IMG/VR virus record: IMGVR_UViG_3300025909_000005
Length of the DNA: 64,000 bases
From: a virus
Lineage: Duplodnaviria > Caudoviricetes
Direction: 5' to 3' (one strand)
Part shown: piece by piece, positions 50,676 through 63,192 of the stretch
Layout of the letters: each line of letters begins with the position of its first letter
Numbering within the stretch: the first letter of the stretch is position 1
Position numbers and translations under genes: made by a program
The notes under the pieces: generated by a model
Told to the model about the DNA's origin: nothing
What the model saw: only the letters and a program-made list of their open reading frames with translations
Database searches by the model: none

Positions 50676-50730
50676 AACCTGCGAGGTGTCCTGATCAAAC
50701 CAACACCTCCGGTGACCTTCGAACTATAAT
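50676..50730 (+). promoter_or_regulatory. promoter with upstream AACCTGCG motif
   Basis: AACCTGCG 50676-50683, AGGTGT/ACACCT inverted repeat, TATAAT 50725-50730. Confidence 0.55.
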
Positions 50731-50756: not shown

Positions 50757-52154
50757 ATGACAGAAGAAATCATCATCGTGGATGACGGCACAGCTGTGGC
50801 CGAGCGCATCAGGGAACTCATCGCTGAAGCAGTGGCAGACGGCCGCAAGCTCGTCACTGTTCGTACCATCGACGCGATCAACGACATCCCCGGTGCCGAC
50901 CTCATCAAGGTCGCACAGATCGAGGGCTGGCAGGTCGTCGTGAAGGCCGGCGAGTTCAACGTCGGAGACCCGTGCGTCTTCTTCGAGGTCGACGCGTTCC
51001 TGCAGCTGAGTGACCCGCGCTTCGCGTTCCTTGAGAAGAACGCCATCACGTGGCACGGTATTCGTGGTGCTCGCCTCAAGACCATTCGCCTGCGCAAGCA
51101 GCTGTCGCAGGGTCTCGCGCTGCCGCTGAAGGACTTCCCAGAGATCATCGCTGAGTGGGACCGTCTCTGCAACGAGCCGGGCGTGAAGGCCGCCAACACG
51201 ACCATTCGTGACGTGAACTTCACTGGCGTCGTTGGCGTCATGAAGTGGGAGAAGATCATGAGCGCCCAGCTGGCTGGTCAGGCTCGTGGCAACTTCCCAT
51301 CCTTCATCCAGAAGTCGGACCAGGAGCGTGCGCAGAACATGGGCGACCGCATCTTCAGCTACGACGAGCAGCTGCGTCCAGTCGACATCAGCGGCATCTC
51401 GATGGAGCAGCTGACCCTCGCCTTCGACGCGAAGCGTATCATCGAGAAGAACGGCCAGTACTTCACGGTCGTGCCGCCGCGTGCCTCACGTGAGACGCGC
51501 TACGACATCACCATCAAGCTCGATGGCAGCTCCATGACGATGTACTGCCGCCTGCCGGACAGCGAAGGTGACATGCTCATCAAGGATGCCGAAGGCAACG
51601 TCATCGGCAACGGCGTGCAGTCAGGCGTCTGCTCTCGCAACCTCGACCTCAAGATCGAGGGCAACGAAGGCAACTCGTTCGTCGACATGGCGCAGAGCGG
51701 CATGCTCGATCAGCTGGTCGAGTACTGCAAGCGGACTGGTCGCAGCCTCGCGCTGCAGGGCGAGCTCATGGGTCCTGGCATTCAGGGCAACCGTGAAGGC
51801 CTGACTGAGAACAAGTTCTTCCTCTACAACATCTTCAACATCAACACGGGCGTCTACCTCGCTCCTGAAGAACGTTACAAGGTGCTGGCAGAGATCAACG
51901 CCCTCGCAGATGAAGGCATCGACCCGCGCTTCAAGTACATCGCGCACGTGCCGGTTCTCTTCCCGACCGAGCGGTTCGGGGATAACGGCATGAGCCTTGC
52001 TGAACTTGGCATCACCGACATGGCATCGCTGCTGAAGTTCGCCGAAGGCAAGTCACTGCACAACGCCGTGCGTGAAGGTCTCGTCTTCAAGGCGTACGAC
52101 GGCACGCACCAGTTCAAGGTGATCAGCAACCTCTACCTCGAACAGGAGAAGTAA
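50757..52154 (+). CDS. RNA ligase, DRB0094/Rnl5-like family
   Basis: N-terminal IPGADLI...GWQVVV...FFEVD; IKLDGSS, QGELMGPGIQGN, EGLVFK, FKVISNLYL. Confidence 0.88.
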   Translation: MTEEIIIVDDGTAVAERIRELIAEAVADGRKLVTVRTIDAINDIPGADLIKVAQIEGWQVVVKAGEFNVGDPCVFFEVDAFLQLSDPRFAFLEKNAITWHGIRGARLKTIRLRKQLSQGLALPLKDFPEIIAEWDRLCNEPGVKAANTTIRDVNFTGVVGVMKWEKIMSAQLAGQARGNFPSFIQKSDQERAQNMGDRIFSYDEQLRPVDISGISMEQLTLAFDAKRIIEKNGQYFTVVPPRASRETRYDITIKLDGSSMTMYCRLPDSEGDMLIKDAEGNVIGNGVQSGVCSRNLDLKIEGNEGNSFVDMAQSGMLDQLVEYCKRTGRSLALQGELMGPGIQGNREGLTENKFFLYNIFNINTGVYLAPEERYKVLAEINALADEGIDPRFKYIAHVPVLFPTERFGDNGMSLAELGITDMASLLKFAEGKSLHNAVREGLVFKAYDGTHQFKVISNLYLEQEK

Positions 52155-52157
52155 GTC

Positions 52158-52211
52158 AACCTGCGTTTTCATCCTGAGGTGTTGTACTGCCTCAGGATGA
52201 CGTGGTAGAAT
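52158..52211 (+). promoter_or_regulatory. promoter with AACCTGCG and a 10-bp inverted repeat
   Basis: AACCTGCG 52158-52165; CATCCTGAGG/CCTCAGGATG; TAGAAT 52206-52211. Confidence 0.55.
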
Positions 52212-52240
52212 TGCTTTATCAGATCAACACAGGAATGAAC

Positions 52241-52906
52241 ATGGGTATTCTCGACACACTCAAAGGCTCCCTCTTCGAGGATGACGGCTCGACGCCGGCA
52301 GCCCCGCAAAAGGTGGCCCCCGCCCCGGTAACGGCGGCTCCACAGGCGGCACGTGCAACGTCCACGTACACGCCGGGCCCCGTGCTCAACCAGGCCATGG
52401 TCGACAAGATCCTCAGCCAGACGATGGCGCGCAACACGGCGCTGACCGCCCTCATCAAGGCGGCAGATGCCCTCAGCGACGTCATTCCCGACCAGACGAT
52501 GCGCCTCAAGGCAGCACAGCGCACCGCTGGTGCTGGCCGCTCGGGCCAGGACATCGCTGCCGCCGTGGACATCCACCTGAACGACGTCGACATGGCGGAA
52601 CGCACGTTCTCGTCGATGGTCCAGAAGGAAGTGGACACGCAGGCCGGCGGTCTGAAGACCCAAGCGCAGGCCGCCGAGGCGACCGTATCGAACAAGCAGG
52701 CCGAGCTCCAGCGCGCACAGGACACGATCGCGCGCCTCACGCAGGAAATCGCCGACGCGCAGCACGCCGCATCTGACCTCGCCGCTCAGGCGTCGCAGAA
52801 GGAATCCGAGCTGCGCCAGTCCGAGACCGAATTCAAGGCCGCCGCACAAGCCGTGCGCGACCAGCTGAACGGTCAGAAGCAAACCATTCTCTCAACTCTC
52901 GGCTAA
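52241..52906 (+). CDS. coiled-coil protein of the envelope/ABC module
   Basis: amphipathic MGILDTLKGSLFED start; long A/Q-rich coiled coil. Confidence 0.8.
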   Translation: MGILDTLKGSLFEDDGSTPAAPQKVAPAPVTAAPQAARATSTYTPGPVLNQAMVDKILSQTMARNTALTALIKAADALSDVIPDQTMRLKAAQRTAGAGRSGQDIAAAVDIHLNDVDMAERTFSSMVQKEVDTQAGGLKTQAQAAEATVSNKQAELQRAQDTIARLTQEIADAQHAASDLAAQASQKESELRQSETEFKAAAQAVRDQLNGQKQTILSTLG

Positions 52907-52925
52907 GCCGAAAAGGAAACCAAAC

Positions 52926-53948
52926 ATGGACGAACTCACCACCAAGCCGAAGTCCTTCTGGGAACGGCCTGAAGGCACCACCGGCATGCTCGTCATCGGC
53001 GGCATCCTGGTCGGCCTCTTCTTCCTCGGCGACACGCTGATGCGGCTGTTCAACACCGCCATCACGCTCGTCGGCCAGGCGATCACCCTCACGATCCTCG
53101 GCTCGATCCTCTTCGCGCTGATCATGATCGTCACGAACAAGAAGTTCCAGACGCTCATCGGCTACATGTTCAAGTCGGCGATGCGGAAGATCACCGGCCT
53201 GTTCGTGGAGATCGACCCGATCGGCATCATGAAGTCGTACATCGAGGACCTGCGGAAGAAGCAGGAAACGATGGACGAGTCGATCGCGAAGCTGAACGGC
53301 CAAGTGAAGATCTGCCAGAAGCAAGTCGACACGAACAAGGCCGAGTACGACCAGCAGATGGCAACGGCAAAGGTCGCGAAGGACAAGAACATGACGTCCG
53401 CACTGACCGTCGCCAGCCGCCAAGCCGGCCGCCTGCAGAAGCTGAACTCCACCTCACTCGAGCCGCTGCTCCTGCAGATGACGATCCACCTGAAGGCACT
53501 GCGCAAGTACCGCGAGGTGACCGACACGGTGATCGCCGACCTGGCCAACGAGGTCAAGGCGCAGGAGATGCAGCGTGACATGATCCGTACATCGTACAAC
53601 GCCATGTCGACCGCCAAGAAGATCCTCATGGGCGGCACCGACGAGAAGGAGCTGTTCGACATGGCCATGGAATCCACGGTCAACGACTACGGCATGAAGA
53701 TGGGCGAAATCGAGAACTTCATCGAGAACTCGAAGGGCTTCGTCGACACGCTCGACCTCCAGAACGGCGTCTACCAGGAAGACGCGCTGAAGAAGCTGCA
53801 AGAGTGGGAGTCCCGTGCGGACAGCATCCTGCTCGGTAACGAGAAGCAGAAGATGCTCGAGCAGACGACGATGTCCTCGCCGGTCGCCACTGGCATCGGC
53901 CTGCCGGCAGCCGCTGACAACGACTTCGCCTCGCTACTGCGCCGCTAA
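52926..53948 (+). CDS. membrane-anchored PspA/IM30-like coiled-coil protein
   Basis: two N-terminal TMs, then IDPIGIMKSYIEDL (cf. PspA EDP..ML...I.DM) and a long helical region. Confidence 0.6.
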   Translation: MDELTTKPKSFWERPEGTTGMLVIGGILVGLFFLGDTLMRLFNTAITLVGQAITLTILGSILFALIMIVTNKKFQTLIGYMFKSAMRKITGLFVEIDPIGIMKSYIEDLRKKQETMDESIAKLNGQVKICQKQVDTNKAEYDQQMATAKVAKDKNMTSALTVASRQAGRLQKLNSTSLEPLLLQMTIHLKALRKYREVTDTVIADLANEVKAQEMQRDMIRTSYNAMSTAKKILMGGTDEKELFDMAMESTVNDYGMKMGEIENFIENSKGFVDTLDLQNGVYQEDALKKLQEWESRADSILLGNEKQKMLEQTTMSSPVATGIGLPAAADNDFASLLRR

Positions 53949-54053
53949 AATAGCTAACACGTTCCAGGTCGGTGAGTTATAATGACTCATCGGCCTTGCG
54001 CTGATAGAGAAGTCTGACAGGACTTAGTTTCATCAACTTTGTAGGAAAATTTC

Positions 54054-55727
54054 ATGGCAAAACTCAAGGCGGCCCCAAAGGCCATTCTGATCGCCGCTGT
54101 GCTGGGCATCGCCGGTTACGGCGTCCACGCAGCGATGAATGCGGGCTACTTCAAGCCGAAGGCAACCATCGCGTCGTCCGTCCCGGACAAGATCGACCTG
54201 CCGACCGCAGGCGCGAACTCCACCACGACCTCCGGCACCGTGATCGCCCCGATCACCGCCAACTCGGCCGACACCGTCAAGGTCGACACCCTCGCGTGGA
54301 ACGCGACGATGGGCATGCACTACGCCAACGGCGGCGTGGACACGGCGAGCGGCTCGCTCATGGACAAGCACGGCCTGAAGGTGCATCTCGTCCGCCAGGA
54401 CGACTACAGCAAGATGGTCGCTGACCTCGCGCTGAACGCCAAGGACCCTTCGCAGGGCGCCAACTTCGTCGTCATCATGGGCGACGGCTACCCGGCCTTC
54501 GTCAAGGGCGCGAACGACGCGCTCAAGCAGTTCAACACCTCCGCCGAAGTCGTCGGCTCGCTCGGCTACAGCCGCGGCGAAGACAAGTGCGTGATCGACG
54601 CGAACGCCTCCCCGAAGGGCGCCCTGATCGCCGGCGTGCTCGGTGACGGCGACATCAACATCTGCATCAAGTACGCCTCCGACAACGGCATCGTCGTCAA
54701 CAGCGACCCGAAGACCTACGACCCGAACGCGATGAACTTCGTCGGCGTGTCGGCCTTCACCGATGCTGACCAGAAGTTCATCGCCGGCGCCAGCGACCGC
54801 GGCCACACGATCAACGGCACCGCCACCTGGACGCCGGGCGACGTGAACGTCTACGACCACCACCCGAACATCAAGGTCCTCGCCTCCACGAAGGAGTACG
54901 CGTGGCAGATGCCGGCCGTCGTGATCGGCAACAAGGCCTGGATGGCCGCTCACCCCGACGTCGTGAAGGCCTTCCTCGCGGCTTCGTTCGAAGGTGGCGA
55001 AGCAGTTCGCTCCGATGACAGCGCCCTGCTGAAGGGTGCCGCAGTCGAAGCCAAGGTCTACGGCGAGCAAGACGCGAACTACTGGGCGACGTACTTCAAG
55101 GGCACCACGAAGGGTGGCATCGCACTGGGCGGCTCGACGACCAGCGGCCTCGCCGACAACGCCTTCCTGTTCGGCCTGAAGGGCAACGACAACCTGTACA
55201 AGAAGGTCTACGACGTCTACGGCAAGATCGCGGTGAAGTACTTCCCTGACAACCTGCCGGCCCTCGTGCCCTACGGTCAAGTCGTGAACACCACCTACGT
55301 GCAGGCCCTGCTCGACTCGGCAACGAACGTCGGTGAAGCAGCGAAGCCGGTCTACGGTGGTCAGAAGTCGGAAGTCGTGGCGAACAAGAGCTACAGCATC
55401 GAGTTCGAAACGGGCAAGGCGACCCTGAAGCCGGCGTCGATCGCGGTCCTCAACGACCTGCTCGACCAGATCGCGGTCTCCAGCCTGAGCGTTCAAGTGA
55501 ACGGCCACACCGACAACGTCGGCGACCCGAACGCGAACCTCGCCCTGTCGAAGGCACGTGCCGAAACGGTGAAGCAGTTCCTGATGGCCAACGCCAGCGG
55601 CAACTTCCCGTCGGAACGCATCACGACCCGCGGTTACGGTGACACCCAGCCGGTCGCCGACAACTCGACCGCTGCCGGCAAGGCGAAGAACCGCCGCGTC
55701 GAAGTCGTGCTCTTCAGCACGAAGTAA
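54054..55727 (+). CDS. ABC substrate-binding domain / OmpA-like peptidoglycan-binding fusion
   Basis: N-terminal TM, periplasmic-binding-type region, C-terminal IEFETGKA...GHTDNVG...NLALSKARAE...GYG...NRRVE. Confidence 0.88.
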   Translation: MAKLKAAPKAILIAAVLGIAGYGVHAAMNAGYFKPKATIASSVPDKIDLPTAGANSTTTSGTVIAPITANSADTVKVDTLAWNATMGMHYANGGVDTASGSLMDKHGLKVHLVRQDDYSKMVADLALNAKDPSQGANFVVIMGDGYPAFVKGANDALKQFNTSAEVVGSLGYSRGEDKCVIDANASPKGALIAGVLGDGDINICIKYASDNGIVVNSDPKTYDPNAMNFVGVSAFTDADQKFIAGASDRGHTINGTATWTPGDVNVYDHHPNIKVLASTKEYAWQMPAVVIGNKAWMAAHPDVVKAFLAASFEGGEAVRSDDSALLKGAAVEAKVYGEQDANYWATYFKGTTKGGIALGGSTTSGLADNAFLFGLKGNDNLYKKVYDVYGKIAVKYFPDNLPALVPYGQVVNTTYVQALLDSATNVGEAAKPVYGGQKSEVVANKSYSIEFETGKATLKPASIAVLNDLLDQIAVSSLSVQVNGHTDNVGDPNANLALSKARAETVKQFLMANASGNFPSERITTRGYGDTQPVADNSTAAGKAKNRRVEVVLFSTK

Positions 55728-55732
55728 GACCT

Positions 55733-55762
55733 GAAGGAGAGAGTCGGGAGACTCTCTCCTCT
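55733..55762 (+). terminator. 13-bp perfect hairpin (terminator or mRNA stabiliser)
   Basis: GAAGGAGAGAGTC-GGGA-GACTCTCTCCTTC. Confidence 0.7.
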
Positions 55763-55804
55763 TCTCGTTGTAGCTGACTACCCGTGTGGGTAATGGAAAA
55801 GACA

Positions 55805-56590
55805 ATGTTCACCACTCTCCTCGTACCGTTTGCGCAAGGCAGGAAGTTCAGCCTCAAGTTTCTTGCAGCGGTTCAACTCGCGATTCTCGCGGCCATCTGG
55901 GTCGTGTTGCCTGCCTCGACTGGCATCCCATCCCCAACAGACATCGGCTCGGCGTGGCAAACGCTGGCCACAACTCAAGGTCTTCTCCTTGAGCTCATGA
56001 AATCCGTGGTGGTGATTTGGGAGGCGCTGATCCTGTCAGCAGCATTTTCCTTCGGTGTCGCCTATCTCACCACTGCGGACATTTTCAAGCCAGCAGGCAC
56101 GATGATCGCTTCGATGCGGTTCCTCGGCTTCGCTGGTCTCACGTTCCTCTTCACGATGTGGACGTCGAGCGGGCAGAACCTCAAGCTTGCGCTGCTGACC
56201 TTCGGCATGACGGTTTTCCTGACCCGCTCCACCATCGATGACGTCAAGAGCATCCCGCTGGAGTCCATCGACTACGCTCGTTCGCTCGGCCTCCGAGGCT
56301 GGCGCATCACCTACGAGATGGCAGTTCGTGGCCGTCTCCATGCGATGCTCGACCTCGTGCGACAGAACGCAGCAGTTGGTTGGACCCTCATCGTGATGGT
56401 CGAAGGCCTGGTTCGCAGCGACGGTGGTATCGGCGCTATGCTCCTGATCCAAGGCAAGTACTTCAACCTCGCGTCAGTGTTCGCCATTCAGCTCACCATT
56501 CTGACGTACGGCATCGTTCAGGACATCCTGCTGAACCTTCTCCGGGCGATCGTGTGCCCATACACTGAACTGAACCGGAGCGACAAGTGA
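55805..56590 (+). CDS. ABC transporter permease, TauC/SsuC-like
   Basis: about six TMs; EAA-like loop SIDYARSLGLRG; EGLVRSDGGIG. Confidence 0.85.
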   Translation: MFTTLLVPFAQGRKFSLKFLAAVQLAILAAIWVVLPASTGIPSPTDIGSAWQTLATTQGLLLELMKSVVVIWEALILSAAFSFGVAYLTTADIFKPAGTMIASMRFLGFAGLTFLFTMWTSSGQNLKLALLTFGMTVFLTRSTIDDVKSIPLESIDYARSLGLRGWRITYEMAVRGRLHAMLDLVRQNAAVGWTLIVMVEGLVRSDGGIGAMLLIQGKYFNLASVFAIQLTILTYGIVQDILLNLLRAIVCPYTELNRSDK

Positions 56591-56754
56591 TCGACGACGA
56601 CGATGATGATGATGAAATCATTGAGCACGAAATCAACATCACGGTGCGGTTTCGTGGTACAATGTCAGAGTACGAGGCAGTTGCCGACTGCGTGTGCGAC
56701 GCTGAGTCCATGATCAGTGAATTCATCTCTCAACTCGGCTGCGAGGAACTCTGA
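56587..56754 (+). CDS. small acidic hypothetical protein
   Basis: GTGA-coupled; poly-Asp start. Confidence 0.45.
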   Translation: MIDDDDDDDEIIEHEINITVRFRGTMSEYEAVADCVCDAESMISEFISQLGCEEL

Positions 56755-57065
56755 TGACTAAGCCTTTTACCCCACGTGATGCAGTCGCCGCTCATGCGGA
56801 AACCATTCCAGACCTCGTGATCGATGTCGTCAACGGCCTTCTGGCGGAGGAAAGCCGTGGCACCAGCCGTCGCATCACCTTCACGTCGAAGGAAGTGTCG
56901 AAGCGTATCAAGGCCCTACTCCCAGACCATGTCAAGTTCGAGGACCGCTGGCTCGACTTCGAGGGCGTCTACCGACGTTACGGCTGGAAGGTGTCCTATG
57001 ACGGACCCGGTTACAACGAGTCGTACGATGGCTTCTACATCTTCGAGAAGAAAGACGAGGACTGA
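56754..57065 (+). CDS. hypothetical protein
   Basis: 103 aa, coupled. Confidence 0.7.
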   Translation: MTKPFTPRDAVAAHAETIPDLVIDVVNGLLAEESRGTSRRITFTSKEVSKRIKALLPDHVKFEDRWLDFEGVYRRYGWKVSYDGPGYNESYDGFYIFEKKDED

Positions 57066-57307
57066 TGGCCTACTCAACCCCTGGCGTCTCCATCTACTGC
57101 ACCATCTACGCGACGATCAACGATCGCGTAGAGGAGTTCAAGAACAAGAAGGGCGAGATCGAGGCGCGCACCATCGAAGGTGAAAAGGTCTGCGAGATGC
57201 TGAACGTCGGCCTGACGCCAGGCGCCTTCCACTCCCTCTACACCCAGTTCAAGCGGCAGCACCCGACAGCTGTCGTCCGCTTTGGCAAGGAATACAAGCC
57301 ATCATGA
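57065..57307 (+). CDS. hypothetical protein
   Basis: 80 aa, coupled. Confidence 0.6.
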   Translation: MAYSTPGVSIYCTIYATINDRVEEFKNKKGEIEARTIEGEKVCEMLNVGLTPGAFHSLYTQFKRQHPTAVVRFGKEYKPS

Positions 57308-58095
57308 GCACCACCCGACAGTACCGCTACGCCGATCGTCTGATGACGATCGAGGGACTCAACCTCTCGTACGGCAGCAAGACGATCCTTCGCGACATCA
57401 ACCTCGTGATCGACGACATCATCCGCCCAGAGATCACGCAGGGCCAATGCGTCGCGCTGCTCGGCCCCTCGGGCATCGGCAAGACGCAACTCTTTCGCTG
57501 CATCGCAGGCCTACAGCGCCCCACGTCTGGCATCGTCCGGATCAATGGTGACAAGGACCACGTGAAGGCTGGTGAGATCGGTGTGGTTCAACAGAGCTAC
57601 CCATTGCTCGCTCACCGCACGATCCTCAGCAACCTTCTGCTCGTGAACAAGGACAAGTCGAAGGTGATAGAGCTCCTCACTCGCTTCGGCCTCGAGGAGC
57701 ACGCGGACAAGTACCCCATTCAGCTGTCAGGTGGTCAGCGTCAACGCGTCGCGATCATCCAGCAGATGGTCTGCTCACGCCACTTCCTGCTGATGGACGA
57801 GCCGTTCTCGGGCCTCGACATCATCGCGAAGGACAAGGTCTGCAGCCTCATCAACGAGGTCAACCACGTCGACGAGCTGAACACGACCATCTTCACGACC
57901 CACGACCTCGAGTCCAGTGTACAGATCGCTGACCACATCTGGGTCCTTGGTCGCGAGAAGGACAAGCCTGGTGCCACCGTCATCAAGACGATCGACCTCA
58001 TCGAGCGAGACCTCGCCTGGTCACCGGACATCACGAAGCACCCCAACTTCCAACCAACGGTGAACGAGCTCAAGGAGCTCTTCAAGACGCTATGA
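57304..58095 (+). CDS. ABC transporter ATPase, TauB/SsuB-like
   Basis: GPSGIGKT, LSGGQRQRV, LLMDEPFSGLD, TTHD. Confidence 0.93.
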   Translation: MSTTRQYRYADRLMTIEGLNLSYGSKTILRDINLVIDDIIRPEITQGQCVALLGPSGIGKTQLFRCIAGLQRPTSGIVRINGDKDHVKAGEIGVVQQSYPLLAHRTILSNLLLVNKDKSKVIELLTRFGLEEHADKYPIQLSGGQRQRVAIIQQMVCSRHFLLMDEPFSGLDIIAKDKVCSLINEVNHVDELNTTIFTTHDLESSVQIADHIWVLGREKDKPGATVIKTIDLIERDLAWSPDITKHPNFQPTVNELKELFKTL

Positions 58096-58433
58096 ACGGC
58101 GACACATACCACTTCAAGGCGCTCAAGCGCCACCTTCGCGTCTCCTCTATCGACGGCATCACACCGCTCCGCTACAGTGAGGAAGGTGGGCCTATCGACG
58201 TCTTCGGCGATGGCGTAGTCGAGCACGTGCCTGAATCAGGGTTTGCAAGCTTCTCCTTCCTGAGCGGTGGGCGGTGGCAAGAAGTCTCGATCAGCTTCGA
58301 CACAGAGACCTATCACCGCCGCGGCATCAAGGCCGAGAGCGTGTGGCCCGCTCTCCGCGCCTTCAAGGCGGACTACGAAGAGCTGGTTCGGCAATTCCAT
58401 GGGTGGTCGCGCCCTCGTCTGGCCATCGACTGA
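58092..58433 (+). CDS. hypothetical protein
   Basis: 113 aa, coupled. Confidence 0.6.
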   Translation: MNGDTYHFKALKRHLRVSSIDGITPLRYSEEGGPIDVFGDGVVEHVPESGFASFSFLSGGRWQEVSISFDTETYHRRGIKAESVWPALRAFKADYEELVRQFHGWSRPRLAID

Positions 58434-58435
58434 TC

Positions 58436-58480
58436 AACCTGCGTTTGTGAGTGTCTAACCTGTCACAGGTTGCTTACAAT
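58436..58480 (+). promoter_or_regulatory. promoter with AACCTGCG and an AACCTGT-C-ACAGGTT palindrome
   Basis: TACAAT 58475-58480; CACAGGTTGCTTAYAAT shared with 41282-41298. Confidence 0.6.
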
Positions 58481-58506
58481 AGCTCATCAACAACCAAAAG
58501 GACATC

Positions 58507-59610
58507 ATGCCGAAGCTCAAGGTTCTCCCGAAGGCGCTCATCGTCGCTGCAGTCGTCGGTGGTGGCGCGTTCGCTGCCTACAAGTTCATGCCGAAGAAGA
58601 CCGAAGTGGCACAAGCCACTGAGACGGTCACGACCCCCGCTCCAGCTCCCGTCACCGTCGCGCAAGCACCGGTTCCCGCTCCCATCGCCCAGCCGCCTGC
58701 CGTCCAGAACGACGCACCTGCTGCAACCGAGGCAGCCACCATTCCCGGCCCGGGCGGCAAGCTCCCTGGTGCAGGCATCGCGTCCGGCCAGAAGACCGGC
58801 ACGAACTGGCCGATGGCCGAGAACATCGTCAAGGTCTGCTCGACGAGCGCCTACCCGCTGCGCAACGTCATCAGCGACGGCTCGATCGACAATCTCAACA
58901 AGATCTACACGGACCCGAACACGCAGTTCGGCATCGCGCAAGAAGATGCGATGGCCTACCAGAAGCAGATCGACCCGAAGATGATGTCGCGCGTTGTCGC
59001 CGTCTTCCCGTTCTTCTCGGTCGAAGTGCACGCGATCGCCGCCAACGGCTCACCGATCCACAACCTGGCCGACCTCGAAGGCAAGCGCGTCATCGAGGGC
59101 CCTGAAGGTTCCGGTACCTGGGTGACCACGCAGATCATCAAGCAGGTCACGGGCATCCACTGGCAGACCGTCGAGGGCAACCTCTCCCAGAAGGACGGCC
59201 TCAAGGCCGTCGAGACCGGCGCCGCAGACGTTGAGTTCATCGTCGCTGGCCAGCCGATCCAAGTCCTCACCGGCGCGAGCGGCATCCAGCTCGTCAACAT
59301 CAAGGATCCGCGTCTCGACAAGTACGGCTACTACACGAAGACGATGCTCCCGACGGGCACGTACCCATGGCAGAGCCAGCCCGTCTCGACCTACAAGGTC
59401 AACAACGTGCTCGCGACGTTCGCGTACAAGTCGCAGTACCAGAAGGAAATCGGCGACCTTGTCGGCTGCATCACGAAGAACATGGACCAGCTGCAGGCAA
59501 CCGGTCACCCGAAGTGGCGCGACGTCGACCCGCTGGACATCGATCGCGTGAAGTGGCCGGTTCACCCCGCCGCCGTGGCCGCCATCAAGCGTGAAGCGAA
59601 GCACAAGTGA
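58507..59610 (+). CDS. TAXI-family (TRAP-associated) solute receptor with N-terminal anchor
   Basis: SGQKTGTNW, SDGSIDNL, FGIAQED, FSVEVHAIA, DLEGKRVIEGPEGSGT. Confidence 0.8.
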   Translation: MPKLKVLPKALIVAAVVGGGAFAAYKFMPKKTEVAQATETVTTPAPAPVTVAQAPVPAPIAQPPAVQNDAPAATEAATIPGPGGKLPGAGIASGQKTGTNWPMAENIVKVCSTSAYPLRNVISDGSIDNLNKIYTDPNTQFGIAQEDAMAYQKQIDPKMMSRVVAVFPFFSVEVHAIAANGSPIHNLADLEGKRVIEGPEGSGTWVTTQIIKQVTGIHWQTVEGNLSQKDGLKAVETGAADVEFIVAGQPIQVLTGASGIQLVNIKDPRLDKYGYYTKTMLPTGTYPWQSQPVSTYKVNNVLATFAYKSQYQKEIGDLVGCITKNMDQLQATGHPKWRDVDPLDIDRVKWPVHPAAVAAIKREAKHK

Positions 59611-59804: not shown

Positions 59805-60022
59805 GCGCCAAGTCTGAGGCTGCAGGAGTCGCCAGCAAGTTCATGGATCGCGCCATCAAGAAGCGTGAGAAGGAATGGAAAGAGGGTGATGCCTCCAACC
59901 CACCTCCACTGGGCTTGCTCATGACTGACGTCGCTGAGCTGATGGCGAGGGAGATCGTTCGGCTGCAGCGGAAGATTCACAAGCTGGAGAATCCTCCAGT
60001 GCCTGAAAGACCGTGGAAATGA
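59801..60022 (+). CDS. hypothetical protein
   Basis: coupled. Confidence 0.55.
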   Translation: MSAKSEAAGVASKFMDRAIKKREKEWKEGDASNPPPLGLLMTDVAELMAREIVRLQRKIHKLENPPVPERPWK

Positions 60023-60531
60023 AGTGGCCCCTCTTCTTTGCCTACATGGTTGCGTCGTACGTGGTTGGAACGTGGATCGGTGACACCTCTGACTCCATCT
60101 GGCTCTACGCGCTCATCACCGCACCAGGCACGTTCTTCCACGAGTCCATGCACTGGCTTACGGCAGCAGCGTTGCATGGCAATCCTGGAAGCATGCACCT
60201 GATTCCATCGGGTGACGCACTCGGGTACGTGGCTGTGGAGCCCAACTGGTACAACGCAGCCACGATCGGTGCAGCTCCACTCGTGCTCGCTCCCTTCGCC
60301 GGGCTCTTCCTTGGCCTTGCAACGAGTGCTGGCTTCTCGTGGAAGGCGCCGCTCTACCTGTACCTCGCCTGCTGCTCATGGGCAGCCTGCATTCCATCAG
60401 GCGCCGACTGGGAAATCGCCCGCTCTTCGGCAATTTCATGGCCAATTGCCCTCGTCATTCTTGGTTCACTCACCGCGCTTATCATCTGGCTGCTGATGCG
60501 CTGCGTGGGAACTCAGGATACAAAGCACTGA
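60013..60531 (+). CDS. membrane-embedded zinc metalloprotease, M50-like
   Basis: PGTFFHESMH (HExxH) within a TM; IGAAP; SGADW. Confidence 0.7.
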   Translation: MEMKWPLFFAYMVASYVVGTWIGDTSDSIWLYALITAPGTFFHESMHWLTAAALHGNPGSMHLIPSGDALGYVAVEPNWYNAATIGAAPLVLAPFAGLFLGLATSAGFSWKAPLYLYLACCSWAACIPSGADWEIARSSAISWPIALVILGSLTALIIWLLMRCVGTQDTKH

Positions 60532-62067: not shown

Positions 62068-63192
62068 ATGGCATCGAAAGTTCTGACCGTCTACATCGGT
62101 CGTTTCCAACCACTTCACAACGGACATGTCCACGTTCTGACGAATGCGCTTCGCACGTCGGACCACACGCTGGTGCTCGTCGGCAGCTCGTTCCGTTCCC
62201 GCACGATCAAGAACCCCTTCACGTTCGACGAACGTAAGGAAGTGCTCATGGCCTGGCACGACGACTCGGAGCTCGACAAGAAGAGCCTGACCGTTCTGCC
62301 ACTGCGTGACCAGCCCTACTCAAACTCCAAGTGGATCGAGTCGGTGCAGAAGACGGTCCACAACTTCATGATCGAGAAGCATCTCGACCCCCGCACCACT
62401 GAAGTTCGCCTCACCGGTTCCGACCGTGACGAGTCGACCTGGTACCTGCAGGCCTTCCCGCAGTGGAAGCTGGCGCTCTGCGCTCCAGTTCCTGCCGGCC
62501 GCGACCTCTCAGCCACCAACCTCCGTCATGAGCTGTTCGGCGCCATGCTTGGCACGGCCATCAAGGACGACACCCCTCGCATCACGCAGTTCTTCATCGA
62601 GAAGTTCCGATTCGGCGAGGAGTTCGCGCTCCTCAAGGCCGAGTACGACTTCATCGAGAAGTACAAGAAGGCCTGGAAGGCAGCACCCTACGCACCCTAC
62701 TTCCTGACCGTCGACGGCGTCGTGATCCAATCCGGCCACGTGCTGGTCGTCCGCCGCGGCGCCCTCCCTGGCAAGGGCCTGCTCGCTCTGCCTGGTGGCT
62801 TCCTCGATCAGAACGAGCGCCTCGCCGACGGCGTGGTTCGTGAACTCATCGAGGAAACGGGTCTGCGTCTGGCTGACGGCAAGAACGCCGAACGCATCAC
62901 GAAGTCGATGCTGCAGGGCGCCATCAAGGCGAAGGAAATCTTCGACGATCCGAATCGCTCGCTGCGTGGTCGCACCGTGACGACTGCCTACCTCATCCGC
63001 CTCGATGACACCAAGCCGCTTCCGAAGGTGAAGGGCCAGTACGCACCGCTCCACGAGACCGGCGGCAAGCTCGTCGTCGAAACGGCTGACGCGTTCTGGA
63101 TGCCGATCGCCGACGCGCTGCGCGACAGCTCGGTGTGGTTCGAGGACCACTACTACATTCTCGAGACGATGCTCGGCTTTGCGAAGGACTGA
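62068..63192 (+). CDS. nadM: bifunctional NMN adenylyltransferase / ADP-ribose Nudix hydrolase
   Basis: YIGRFQPLHNGH, KNPFTFDER; Nudix box LPGGFLDQNERLADGVVRELIEETG; FEDHY. Confidence 0.92.
   Translation: MASKVLTVYIGRFQPLHNGHVHVLTNALRTSDHTLVLVGSSFRSRTIKNPFTFDERKEVLMAWHDDSELDKKSLTVLPLRDQPYSNSKWIESVQKTVHNFMIEKHLDPRTTEVRLTGSDRDESTWYLQAFPQWKLALCAPVPAGRDLSATNLRHELFGAMLGTAIKDDTPRITQFFIEKFRFGEEFALLKAEYDFIEKYKKAWKAAPYAPYFLTVDGVVIQSGHVLVVRRGALPGKGLLALPGGFLDQNERLADGVVRELIEETGLRLADGKNAERITKSMLQGAIKAKEIFDDPNRSLRGRTVTTAYLIRLDDTKPLPKVKGQYAPLHETGGKLVVETADAFWMPIADALRDSSVWFEDHYYILETMLGFAKD

Follow-up and report, generated by a model that had tools for sequence, protein, structure and literature searches.

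A huge-phage gene cluster of the PspA/Snf7, PBP-OmpA and ABC transporter operon type

A 64,000-nucleotide stretch of the virus record IMGVR_UViG_3300025909_000005 (Duplodnaviria; Caudoviricetes), hereafter called the window, carries five colinear genes on the + strand, from position 52241 to 58095, that encode a cytoplasmic coiled-coil protein (C), a PspA-like membrane protein (P), a membrane-anchored receptor that ends in an OmpA domain (S), and the permease (M) and ATPase (A) of an ATP-binding cassette (ABC) transporter. This cluster belongs, with variant features, to an operon type that has already been described computationally (Ravi et al. 2024, PMC11237479, section 18 and Table S3), in which a gene for PspA or for a transmembrane (TM) Snf7 protein accompanies genes for a PBPB+OmpA protein, a permease and an ABC ATPase. 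We favor, with a probability of roughly 55%, a reading in which a huge phage carries its own version of an envelope operon that is conserved in bacteria, namely the PspA/Snf7, periplasmic binding protein (PBP)-OmpA and ABC transporter type, working by the mechanism proposed below. The system would most likely be a wall-tethered solute importer paired with a membrane-stabilizing PspA-like protein.

A preliminary description of the window, made from its sequence, had named six genes at this site, namely the five above and a receptor of the TAXI family. All six have the coordinates and domains claimed for them, and all of these open reading frames (ORFs) lie on the + strand. As for its interpretation, the idea of a conserved gene unit with a PspA-like fold and a doubly attached receptor stands, whereas TAXI does not belong to the core and the system is not undescribed.

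Conservation of the five-gene core

Protein searches place S and P each in a large family found on long viral contigs. Iterated hidden Markov models (HMMs) were built for each protein of the window and run over the fetched loci. These were 71 loci from IMG/VR (on contigs up to 578 kb), to which LR756500, Lak-A2 and several assemblies were added, and the viral set comprises 78 loci. The genes for M and A follow S in all 69 viral loci with a visible downstream flank. Where the upstream flank can be seen, P is present in 66 of 73 loci and C likewise in 66 of 73, with C located directly upstream of P. All four of C, P, M and A are found in 58 of the 66 viral loci for which both flanks are visible, and the order C-P-S-M-A is almost invariant. 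The Lak-A2 megaphage keeps the order P-S-M-A at only 21-31% identity, and profiles detect C both there and in LR756500, which carries the full C-P-S-M-A set. A DNA-level search of the cluster against a phage collection returned no match. The preliminary description had staked its proposal of a single unit on the genes occurring together elsewhere, and C-P-S-M-A is indeed colinear in most of the 78 viral loci and in many bacterial loci.

The operon is not specific to phages. It is also found in bacterial chromosomes among ordinary cellular neighbors. A total of 282 loci were identified in species-representative bacterial genomes. Isolates that carry S on contigs of 1-1.8 Mb include Undibacterium TS12, Undibacterium TJN19 and Albitalea terrae, and further carriers are Caballeronia zhejiangensis (OP-1), Massilia glaciei, Collimonas, Scleromatobacter and Serratia microhaemolytica. 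The Burkholderiales loci keep the C-P-S-M-A order. In Undibacterium TJN19, the flanking genes are cellular (chemoreceptor, POT transporter, DUF4331, HupE and thiolase), and the divergent genes directly beside C code for a KdpD-like histidine kinase and an OmpR-type regulator. Such a kinase-regulator pair adjoins the operon in 10-14 Burkholderiales loci, where it is located either upstream in divergent orientation or directly downstream. The kinase is composed of a KdpD N-domain, DUF4118, GAF and HisKA domains (L111, 3949-6954; also L082-L084, L087-L089, L092, L096-L098, L107, L108 and L112). No kdpFABC genes were seen in the fetched flanks of these loci.

Some relatives carry a Pfam-verified PspA. 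In loci from Acidobacteriota, Myxococcota and Armatimonadota, a 243-aa protein that matches Pfam PspA_IM30 (E 3e-15) is encoded before S, and genes for a 300-aa membrane protein and an AAA ATPase are located after A. A true PspA_IM30 protein also precedes S on two viral-like contigs (L006 and L007). Genes nearby on these two contigs code for thymidylate synthase, EPSP synthase, a tRNA m1G methyltransferase, a KH-domain protein and ribosomal protein S16.

In an unrooted FastTree phylogeny of S, the clade that includes the window consists of 15 viral rows and two rows binned into metagenome-assembled genomes (MAGs). This clade is sister to a clade of Burkholderiales chromosomal loci with 100% local support, which fits a betaproteobacterial host for the window phage. 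Viral and bacterial clades interleave in the tree. Because the tree is unrooted, we claim no direction of transfer between phages and bacteria. Near-copies of the phage module, with 73% and 59% identity to S, are also present in MAGs assigned to Acinetobacter sp. and Pseudobdellovibrionaceae (L079 and L080, respectively). Both are placed inside the viral clade, and thus they are likely phage contigs mis-binned into these MAGs.

Predicted proteins of the core

The C protein is identical, letter for letter, to the recorded called gene P0391, and this confirms its start. It begins with a short amphipathic stub, after which a Pro/Ala-rich linker leads to a helical domain that is strongly conserved and to a coiled coil that varies. 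Sequence-profile comparison of C with solved structures gave nothing beyond coiled-coil noise, and an Atlas look-up returned unnamed clusters only. The possibility that C is a paralogue of P was rejected, as hhalign shows no relation between the two. Complex prediction for C with the cytoplasmic part of P gave a score of 0.00, which is no verdict and counts as evidence neither way.

The P protein has hydrophobic helices at about residues 21-39 and 52-70, followed by long helices. An AlphaFold2 model includes a helical hairpin at residues 98-234 with a predicted local distance difference test (pLDDT) score of about 90. The best Foldseek matches of this model in the PDB are Vipp1, PspA and ESCRT-III proteins (7o3w Vipp1, E 5.5e-4), and it aligns with the PspA hairpin of 4whe (PspA 1-144) at a template-modeling score (TM-score) of 0.82 and a root-mean-square deviation of 1.3 over 119 columns. 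Among AlphaFold-DB entries, the top clusters are full-length uncharacterized proteins at 23-33% identity, with one entry named as Snf7 family and several named PspA. A search of the PDB with the P sequence profile yielded nothing useful. In a small database, the P-family HMM picks up the 243-aa PspA verified by Pfam, at E 1e-9 to 3e-7. The model shows that P is predicted to have a PspA/Vipp1/ESCRT-III-like fold behind a two-helix membrane hairpin. We also considered P as an equivalent of the 300-aa TM-Snf7 protein of the Acidobacteria-type operons, and discarded this candidate when a comparison showed no relation.

The S protein, in an AlphaFold2 model with a pLDDT of 81, includes a TM helix (residues 6-29), a disordered linker (35-72), a two-lobed binding domain (74-425) and an OmpA domain (441-554). 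The last of these matches Pfam OmpA (PF00691) at residues 451-547 (E 2.4e-20; 73.1 bits against a cut-off of 27.2), and structure-database matches show that it resembles many solved peptidoglycan-binding domains. Residues D487 and R502 are invariant in 30 sequences. They are located 15 residues apart, which we take, from structures 3TD3-5, to be the spacing of the Asp and Arg residues that hold the stem peptide of peptidoglycan. The peptidoglycan-binding motif of S therefore appears to be intact.

The nearest Foldseek neighbors of the S binding domain are TauA, SsuA, NrtA, CmpA and ThiY (6ssy, 3ksx, 2x26 and 2g29), with a TM-score of 0.77 for TauA (6ssy) and 12-16% identity. Pfam NMT1 or NMT1_2 matches are found in the Lak homolog and in some relatives of S, and neither family is matched by the S protein of the window. 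When the binding domain alone was searched against 1.84 billion representatives, 385 cluster representatives were matched. The top 150 have, with few exceptions, a length of 590-630 aa and the match at about residues 80-480, which indicates that the fused architecture is itself conserved. No ordinary, unfused 300-aa receptors were found among the 385 relatives. The invariant residues of the deep family include many Asp/Glu and Trp/Tyr positions, hinting that the ligand might be polar or cationic.

The M protein aligns with its relatives from the ATG at 55805, which is the start given in the preliminary description, and not from the GTG at 55784. Its matches to SaoP and TauC (E 5e-6 and 7e-5) are far below the respective cut-offs, the SsuC match is weak as well, and an EAA-like loop was recognized by eye. 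The A protein matches ABC_tran at E 7.7e-28 and has GPSGIGKT (Walker A), LSGGQ, FLLMDE (Walker B-Glu) and TTHD (H-loop) motifs, in keeping with a nucleotide-binding domain defined by Walker A, Q-loop, signature, Walker B-Glu and H-loop. Its nearest families are ATPases of the CysA, PhnT and TauB types. Judged from their sequences, M and A show the features of a type-I ABC importer whose ATPase is predicted to work.

Three proposals of the preliminary description are upheld by these comparisons. The protein with two membrane helices was said to be PspA-like, and its fold matches Vipp1, PspA and ESCRT-III, with some relatives holding a Pfam-verified PspA_IM30 at the same position. The receptor was called a fusion of a binding protein with OmpA, and S is a binding protein that has an anchor for the inner membrane as well as a domain of the peptidoglycan-binding kind. 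The ATPase was described as intact and TauB-like, and the full set of catalytic motifs is found in A.

TAXI receptor, regulatory elements and neighboring genes

The gene located downstream of A codes for a protein that scores 98.8 bits with TIGR02122 (cut-off 84.35) and 82.7 bits with PF16868 (cut-off 27), both models of the TAXI family. A membrane component of a TRAP transporter might be expected beside such a receptor, but no Pfam match of this kind was found in the ORFs from 49.7 to 64 kb, and none was seen in two related loci (L003 and L004). TAXI is present in only 18 of the 78 viral loci and at three different positions: downstream of A in the clade of the window, between P and S (L071), and upstream of C (L109 and L113). 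In the sub-clade of the window alone, its anchor nearly copies that of S (MAKLKxxPKAxIxAAVxG; 54054-54150 versus 58507-58600; also L008, L010, L014 and L079), whereas TAXI proteins in other sub-clades carry an ordinary signal peptide. In L003 and L014, an S-type anchor and linker form a separate small ORF just upstream of TAXI. Given the shifting position, the limited presence and a regulatory cassette of its own in the window, TAXI is a recurrent, clade-specific accessory that forms no part of the conserved core. Its earlier placement as a member of a single machine is thus withdrawn.

This cassette is one of four in the window. The sequence TCAACCTGCG(T), followed by a hairpin and TAnAAT, occurs at 50676 (ahead of the RNA ligase gene), 52158 (C), 58436 (TAXI) and 61965 (the NMNAT-Nudix gene). 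The inverted repeat differs at each site, and TAnAAT is located about 35-45 nucleotides downstream. The exact 9-mer AACCTGCGT has 4 occurrences against 0.49 expected. The repeated cassette is probably a phage-specific unit of terminator and promoter, and the copy ahead of TAXI suggests that this gene might be a separate transcription unit. The preliminary description had called the cluster promoter-led. The repeated cassette before C and TAXI supports this part of the description, whereas a generic scan for sigma-70 promoters and terminators gave counts at shuffle level, no better than chance.

One rhizosphere metatranscriptome library (X15) includes short contigs with 97-99% identity to the window. 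Most lie over S, and others cover parts of C/P and the end of TAXI. The presence of contigs in an RNA library neither proves transcription nor ranks genes. The X15 contigs nearly tile S (53937-55606), a region that is flanked by the sigma-70-like site and the terminator-like hairpin listed in Table 1. This is a weak hint that S might be expressed on its own.

Table 1. Positions of genes and regulatory features in and around the cluster
Feature	Position	Strand	Description
RNA ligase	50757-52154	+	Has PHA02142 OB domain; upstream of module
Cassette ahead of C	52156-52211	+	TCAACCTGCGT, inverted repeat CCTGAGG...CCTCAGG (52173-52197), then TAGAAT
C	52241-52906	+	221-aa predicted cytoplasmic coiled-coil protein; no known family
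P	52926-53948	+	340-aa PspA/ESCRT-III-like protein; predicted two-helix N-terminal membrane hairpin, conserved C-terminal tail motif
Sigma-70-like site	53954-53983	+	CTAACA-18-TATAAT ahead of S; weak, single site, within shuffle expectation
S	54054-55727	+	557-aa receptor; TM anchor, binding domain, OmpA domain
Terminator-like hairpin	55735-55760	+	11 pairs; just after S
M	55805-56590	+	ABC permease, 261 aa from ATG; ORF opens with GTG at 55784
Soluble protein	56754-57065	+	103 aa; between M and A only in the clade of the window (10 loci)
Small ORF	57065-57307	+	80 aa; no relatives in fetched loci
A	57304-58095	+	ABC ATPase, 263 aa; all catalytic motifs intact
Small ORF after A	58092-58433	+	113 aa; no relatives in fetched loci
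Cassette ahead of TAXI	58434-58480	+	TCAACCTGCGT, hairpin, TACAAT
TAXI	58507-59610	+	TAXI-family binding protein, 367 aa; N-terminal anchor, then Pro/Ala-rich linker
Membrane protein	60013-60531	+	172 aa; HExxH-like motif (FHESMHW), at least two hydrophobic helices
NMNAT-Nudix gene	62068-63192	+	Downstream of module

The surroundings of the cluster are those of a phage. Long ORFs around the region are nearly all on the + strand, with a G+C content of about 58-62%, and Pfam matches elsewhere in the window include ribonucleotide reductase, a helicase and DNA ligase. Proteins of the module are recorded on contigs up to 376 kb, and DNA of the window is found in rhizosphere metagenomes. The lengths of these contigs, together with the phage-type genes around the module, establish that the source is a huge rhizosphere phage.

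Several neighboring genes deserve mention. The 172-aa membrane protein has no Pfam match and no relatives among the fetched loci. Genes for nicotinamide adenine dinucleotide (NAD) salvage are located 3' of the module in relatives, and these code for NMNAT-Nudix, NAMPT and a PnuC-like transporter of nicotinamide mononucleotide (L004, 17491-21547; L003, 17923-21728; the window, at the NMNAT-Nudix gene). Adenylosuccinate synthetase is also encoded downstream of the module in these relatives (L004 and L003 region).

Function, alternative explanations and known systems

In the mechanism that we favor, S would capture a small periplasmic solute and hand it to an M2A2 importer, while the OmpA domain would tie the receptor, and hence the transporter, to the cell wall. 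P, held at the cytoplasmic face by its hairpin, might assemble in the fashion of PspA and Vipp1 and stabilize or reshape the membrane at this location, with C serving as its putative cytoplasmic coiled-coil partner. In a phage, the module might keep the inner membrane of the host intact, energized and supplied with solute through a long infection. TAXI would be a second receptor, added later in a clade-specific manner.

A number of results dampen our enthusiasm for this reading. P remains below threshold for Pfam PF04012 (PspA_IM30; E 0.51, 10.3 bits versus a cut-off of 33.9), and hhalign aligns its residues 84-139 with the N-terminus (helices 0-1) of one canonical PspA at E 4.6e-4 and a probability of just 33%. 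Long helical hairpins are easily matched by fold. The match of M to BPD_transp_1 (PF00528; E 1.8e-3) is likewise below cut-off, no sequence-profile link was found between the binding domain of S and any solved solute-binding protein (SBP), and the hint of a cationic ligand comes from residue conservation. We looked for TM-Snf7 and the double AAA+ ATPase with HMMs made from the AAA+ and 300-aa TM proteins of relatives, which are present in L138-type loci, and these match nothing in the 64-kb window. A literature search found no experimental work on any member of the operon type. In addition, S-M-A is found without C or P in a few viral and some bacterial loci, and thus the transporter can exist without the PspA-like pair.

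Loci of this last kind would suit a simpler explanation, in which the genes are an ordinary nutrient-uptake set for a sulfonate-, nitrate- or vitamin-precursor-type importer, P and C are independent neighbors, and the OmpA domain merely retains the receptor in the periplasm. The resemblance of S to the TauA, SsuA, NrtA and ThiY receptors and of A to CysA, PhnT and TauB points in the same direction, as does the heavy investment of the phage in nucleotide and NAD metabolism around the site. However, phages and bacteria share the C-P-S-M-A order even where identity falls to 21-31%, independent lineages have either a PspA-like gene or a true PspA gene before S, and SBPs of the standard unfused form are absent among the 385 relatives of the binding domain. 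An ordinary nutrient importer is therefore distinctly unlikely in our estimation. The module could instead be a turgor or plasmolysis device rather than chiefly an importer. In this case, S would fasten the inner membrane to the wall, the ABC ATPase and P would react to osmotic or K+ stress, either as sensors or through osmolyte import, and the phage would use the set to hold the envelope together. Here, the anchoring of S at both ends, the KdpD-like kinase and OmpR-type regulator that adjoin the operon in two arrangements, and the established response of PspA systems to osmotic and membrane stress (PMC11237479) are all favorable. Nevertheless, we view such a device as unlikely, given that the membrane domain of M is of the type-I importer kind and not of the mechanotransmission type, that the window includes no kinase or regulator, and that the KdpD-like link is confined to one bacterial clade.

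A role in conflict between phages, or between phage and host, seems very unlikely to us. Superinfection exclusion, control of lysis timing or interception of a periplasmic signal would be consistent with an envelope-located module that is widely kept by huge phages, and the gain of the S anchor by TAXI within one sub-clade resembles rapid tinkering. However, bacteria carry the same operon on their chromosomes, with housekeeping genes and a two-component system for neighbors, and this points to a role in cell physiology. No defense-family match turned up, none having been sought. A bolder proposal, whose correctness we consider quite doubtful, is that the C-P-S-M-A form, with its membrane-integral P and no AAA+ protein, is a self-contained envelope-repair machine. 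An ESCRT-III-like polymer would be nucleated at a wall-riveted ABC importer, the machine would react to turgor or K+ stress and take up a polyamine or a cationic osmolyte, and the set would have been repeatedly exchanged between huge phages and bacteria, keeping the envelope intact through long infections.

With this cluster, the gene repertoire of huge phages gains an envelope module that is strongly conserved. The module brings together an ABC importer, a membrane protein of the ESCRT-III-like kind and a tether to peptidoglycan, which are usually studied apart. The operon type is widespread: besides the 282 bacterial loci, it is found in the Lak megaphages and on no fewer than 71 IMG/VR contigs of up to 578 kb. 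Its variant features in the window are a P protein with its own membrane hairpin and no TM-Snf7 or AAA+ protein, a form shared by phages and Burkholderiales, and a fifth conserved gene, C, before P. Two findings bring direct tests of the published computational hint within reach: some carriers can be cultured (Caballeronia zhejiangensis OP-1, Massilia glaciei, Collimonas and Undibacterium), and the KdpD-like two-component system is a candidate regulator of the operon.

The preliminary description had considered the system undescribed. This status fails because the central inference is already in print: the operon type and the same inference appear in PMC11237479, and PspA proteins of huge phages beside ABC systems are reported in a 2026 preprint by Yuan and Chen (10.64898/2026.10.24.761521). 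In the former, OmpA is proposed to bind peptidoglycan and the PBP to bind the trafficked solute, and solute transport is linked to membrane remodeling. The arrangement listed there for OGG56892.1 (Table S3) is PspA -> SIG+PBPB+OmpA -> TM(s) -> ABC-ATPase -> SIG+TM+Snf7 -> AAA+AAA, and it recurs in Acidobacteria-type relatives such as L138. As in those operons, a PspA-like gene in the window is located directly before the gene for an anchored PBP+OmpA protein, followed by those for a permease and an ABC ATPase. Unlike in those operons, P has its own two-helix membrane hairpin, the conserved C precedes it, TAXI is added, and the carrier is a phage.

According to the preprint, 184 huge phages have 189 pspA genes between them, and 15 of these genes adjoin complete ABC systems. 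These loci likewise place a huge-phage PspA beside an SBP, a permease and an ATPase, a combination that is read there as membrane-stress management. In contrast, the OmpA fusion, the C gene and the bacterial chromosomal counterparts go unmentioned in the text consulted. The 71 IMG/VR loci, with Lak and LR756500 besides, far exceed the 15 cases counted there and indicate that huge phages carry the module much more often.

The individual parts also have well-known counterparts. The cluster resembles TauABC, SsuABC and NrtABCD in its receptor fold (TauA 6ssy, TM-score 0.77), in having one permease gene and one ATPase gene, and in its ATPase motifs. It differs from them in that S has 12-16% identity and no profile link, is membrane-anchored and fused to OmpA, and is encoded in an operon coupled to PspA-like genes. 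P shares with PspA, Vipp1 (IM30) and ESCRT-III a long alpha-helical hairpin followed by further helices. However, canonical PspA is peripheral and binds via an amphipathic helix, whereas P is predicted to be integral by virtue of its two-TM hairpin and falls below the Pfam threshold. Finally, S is similar to proteins of the MotB, TagL and YiaD type, in which an inner-membrane anchor and a C-terminal OmpA-like domain tie an inner-membrane machine to peptidoglycan, but S carries a complete solute-binding domain between the anchor and the OmpA domain.

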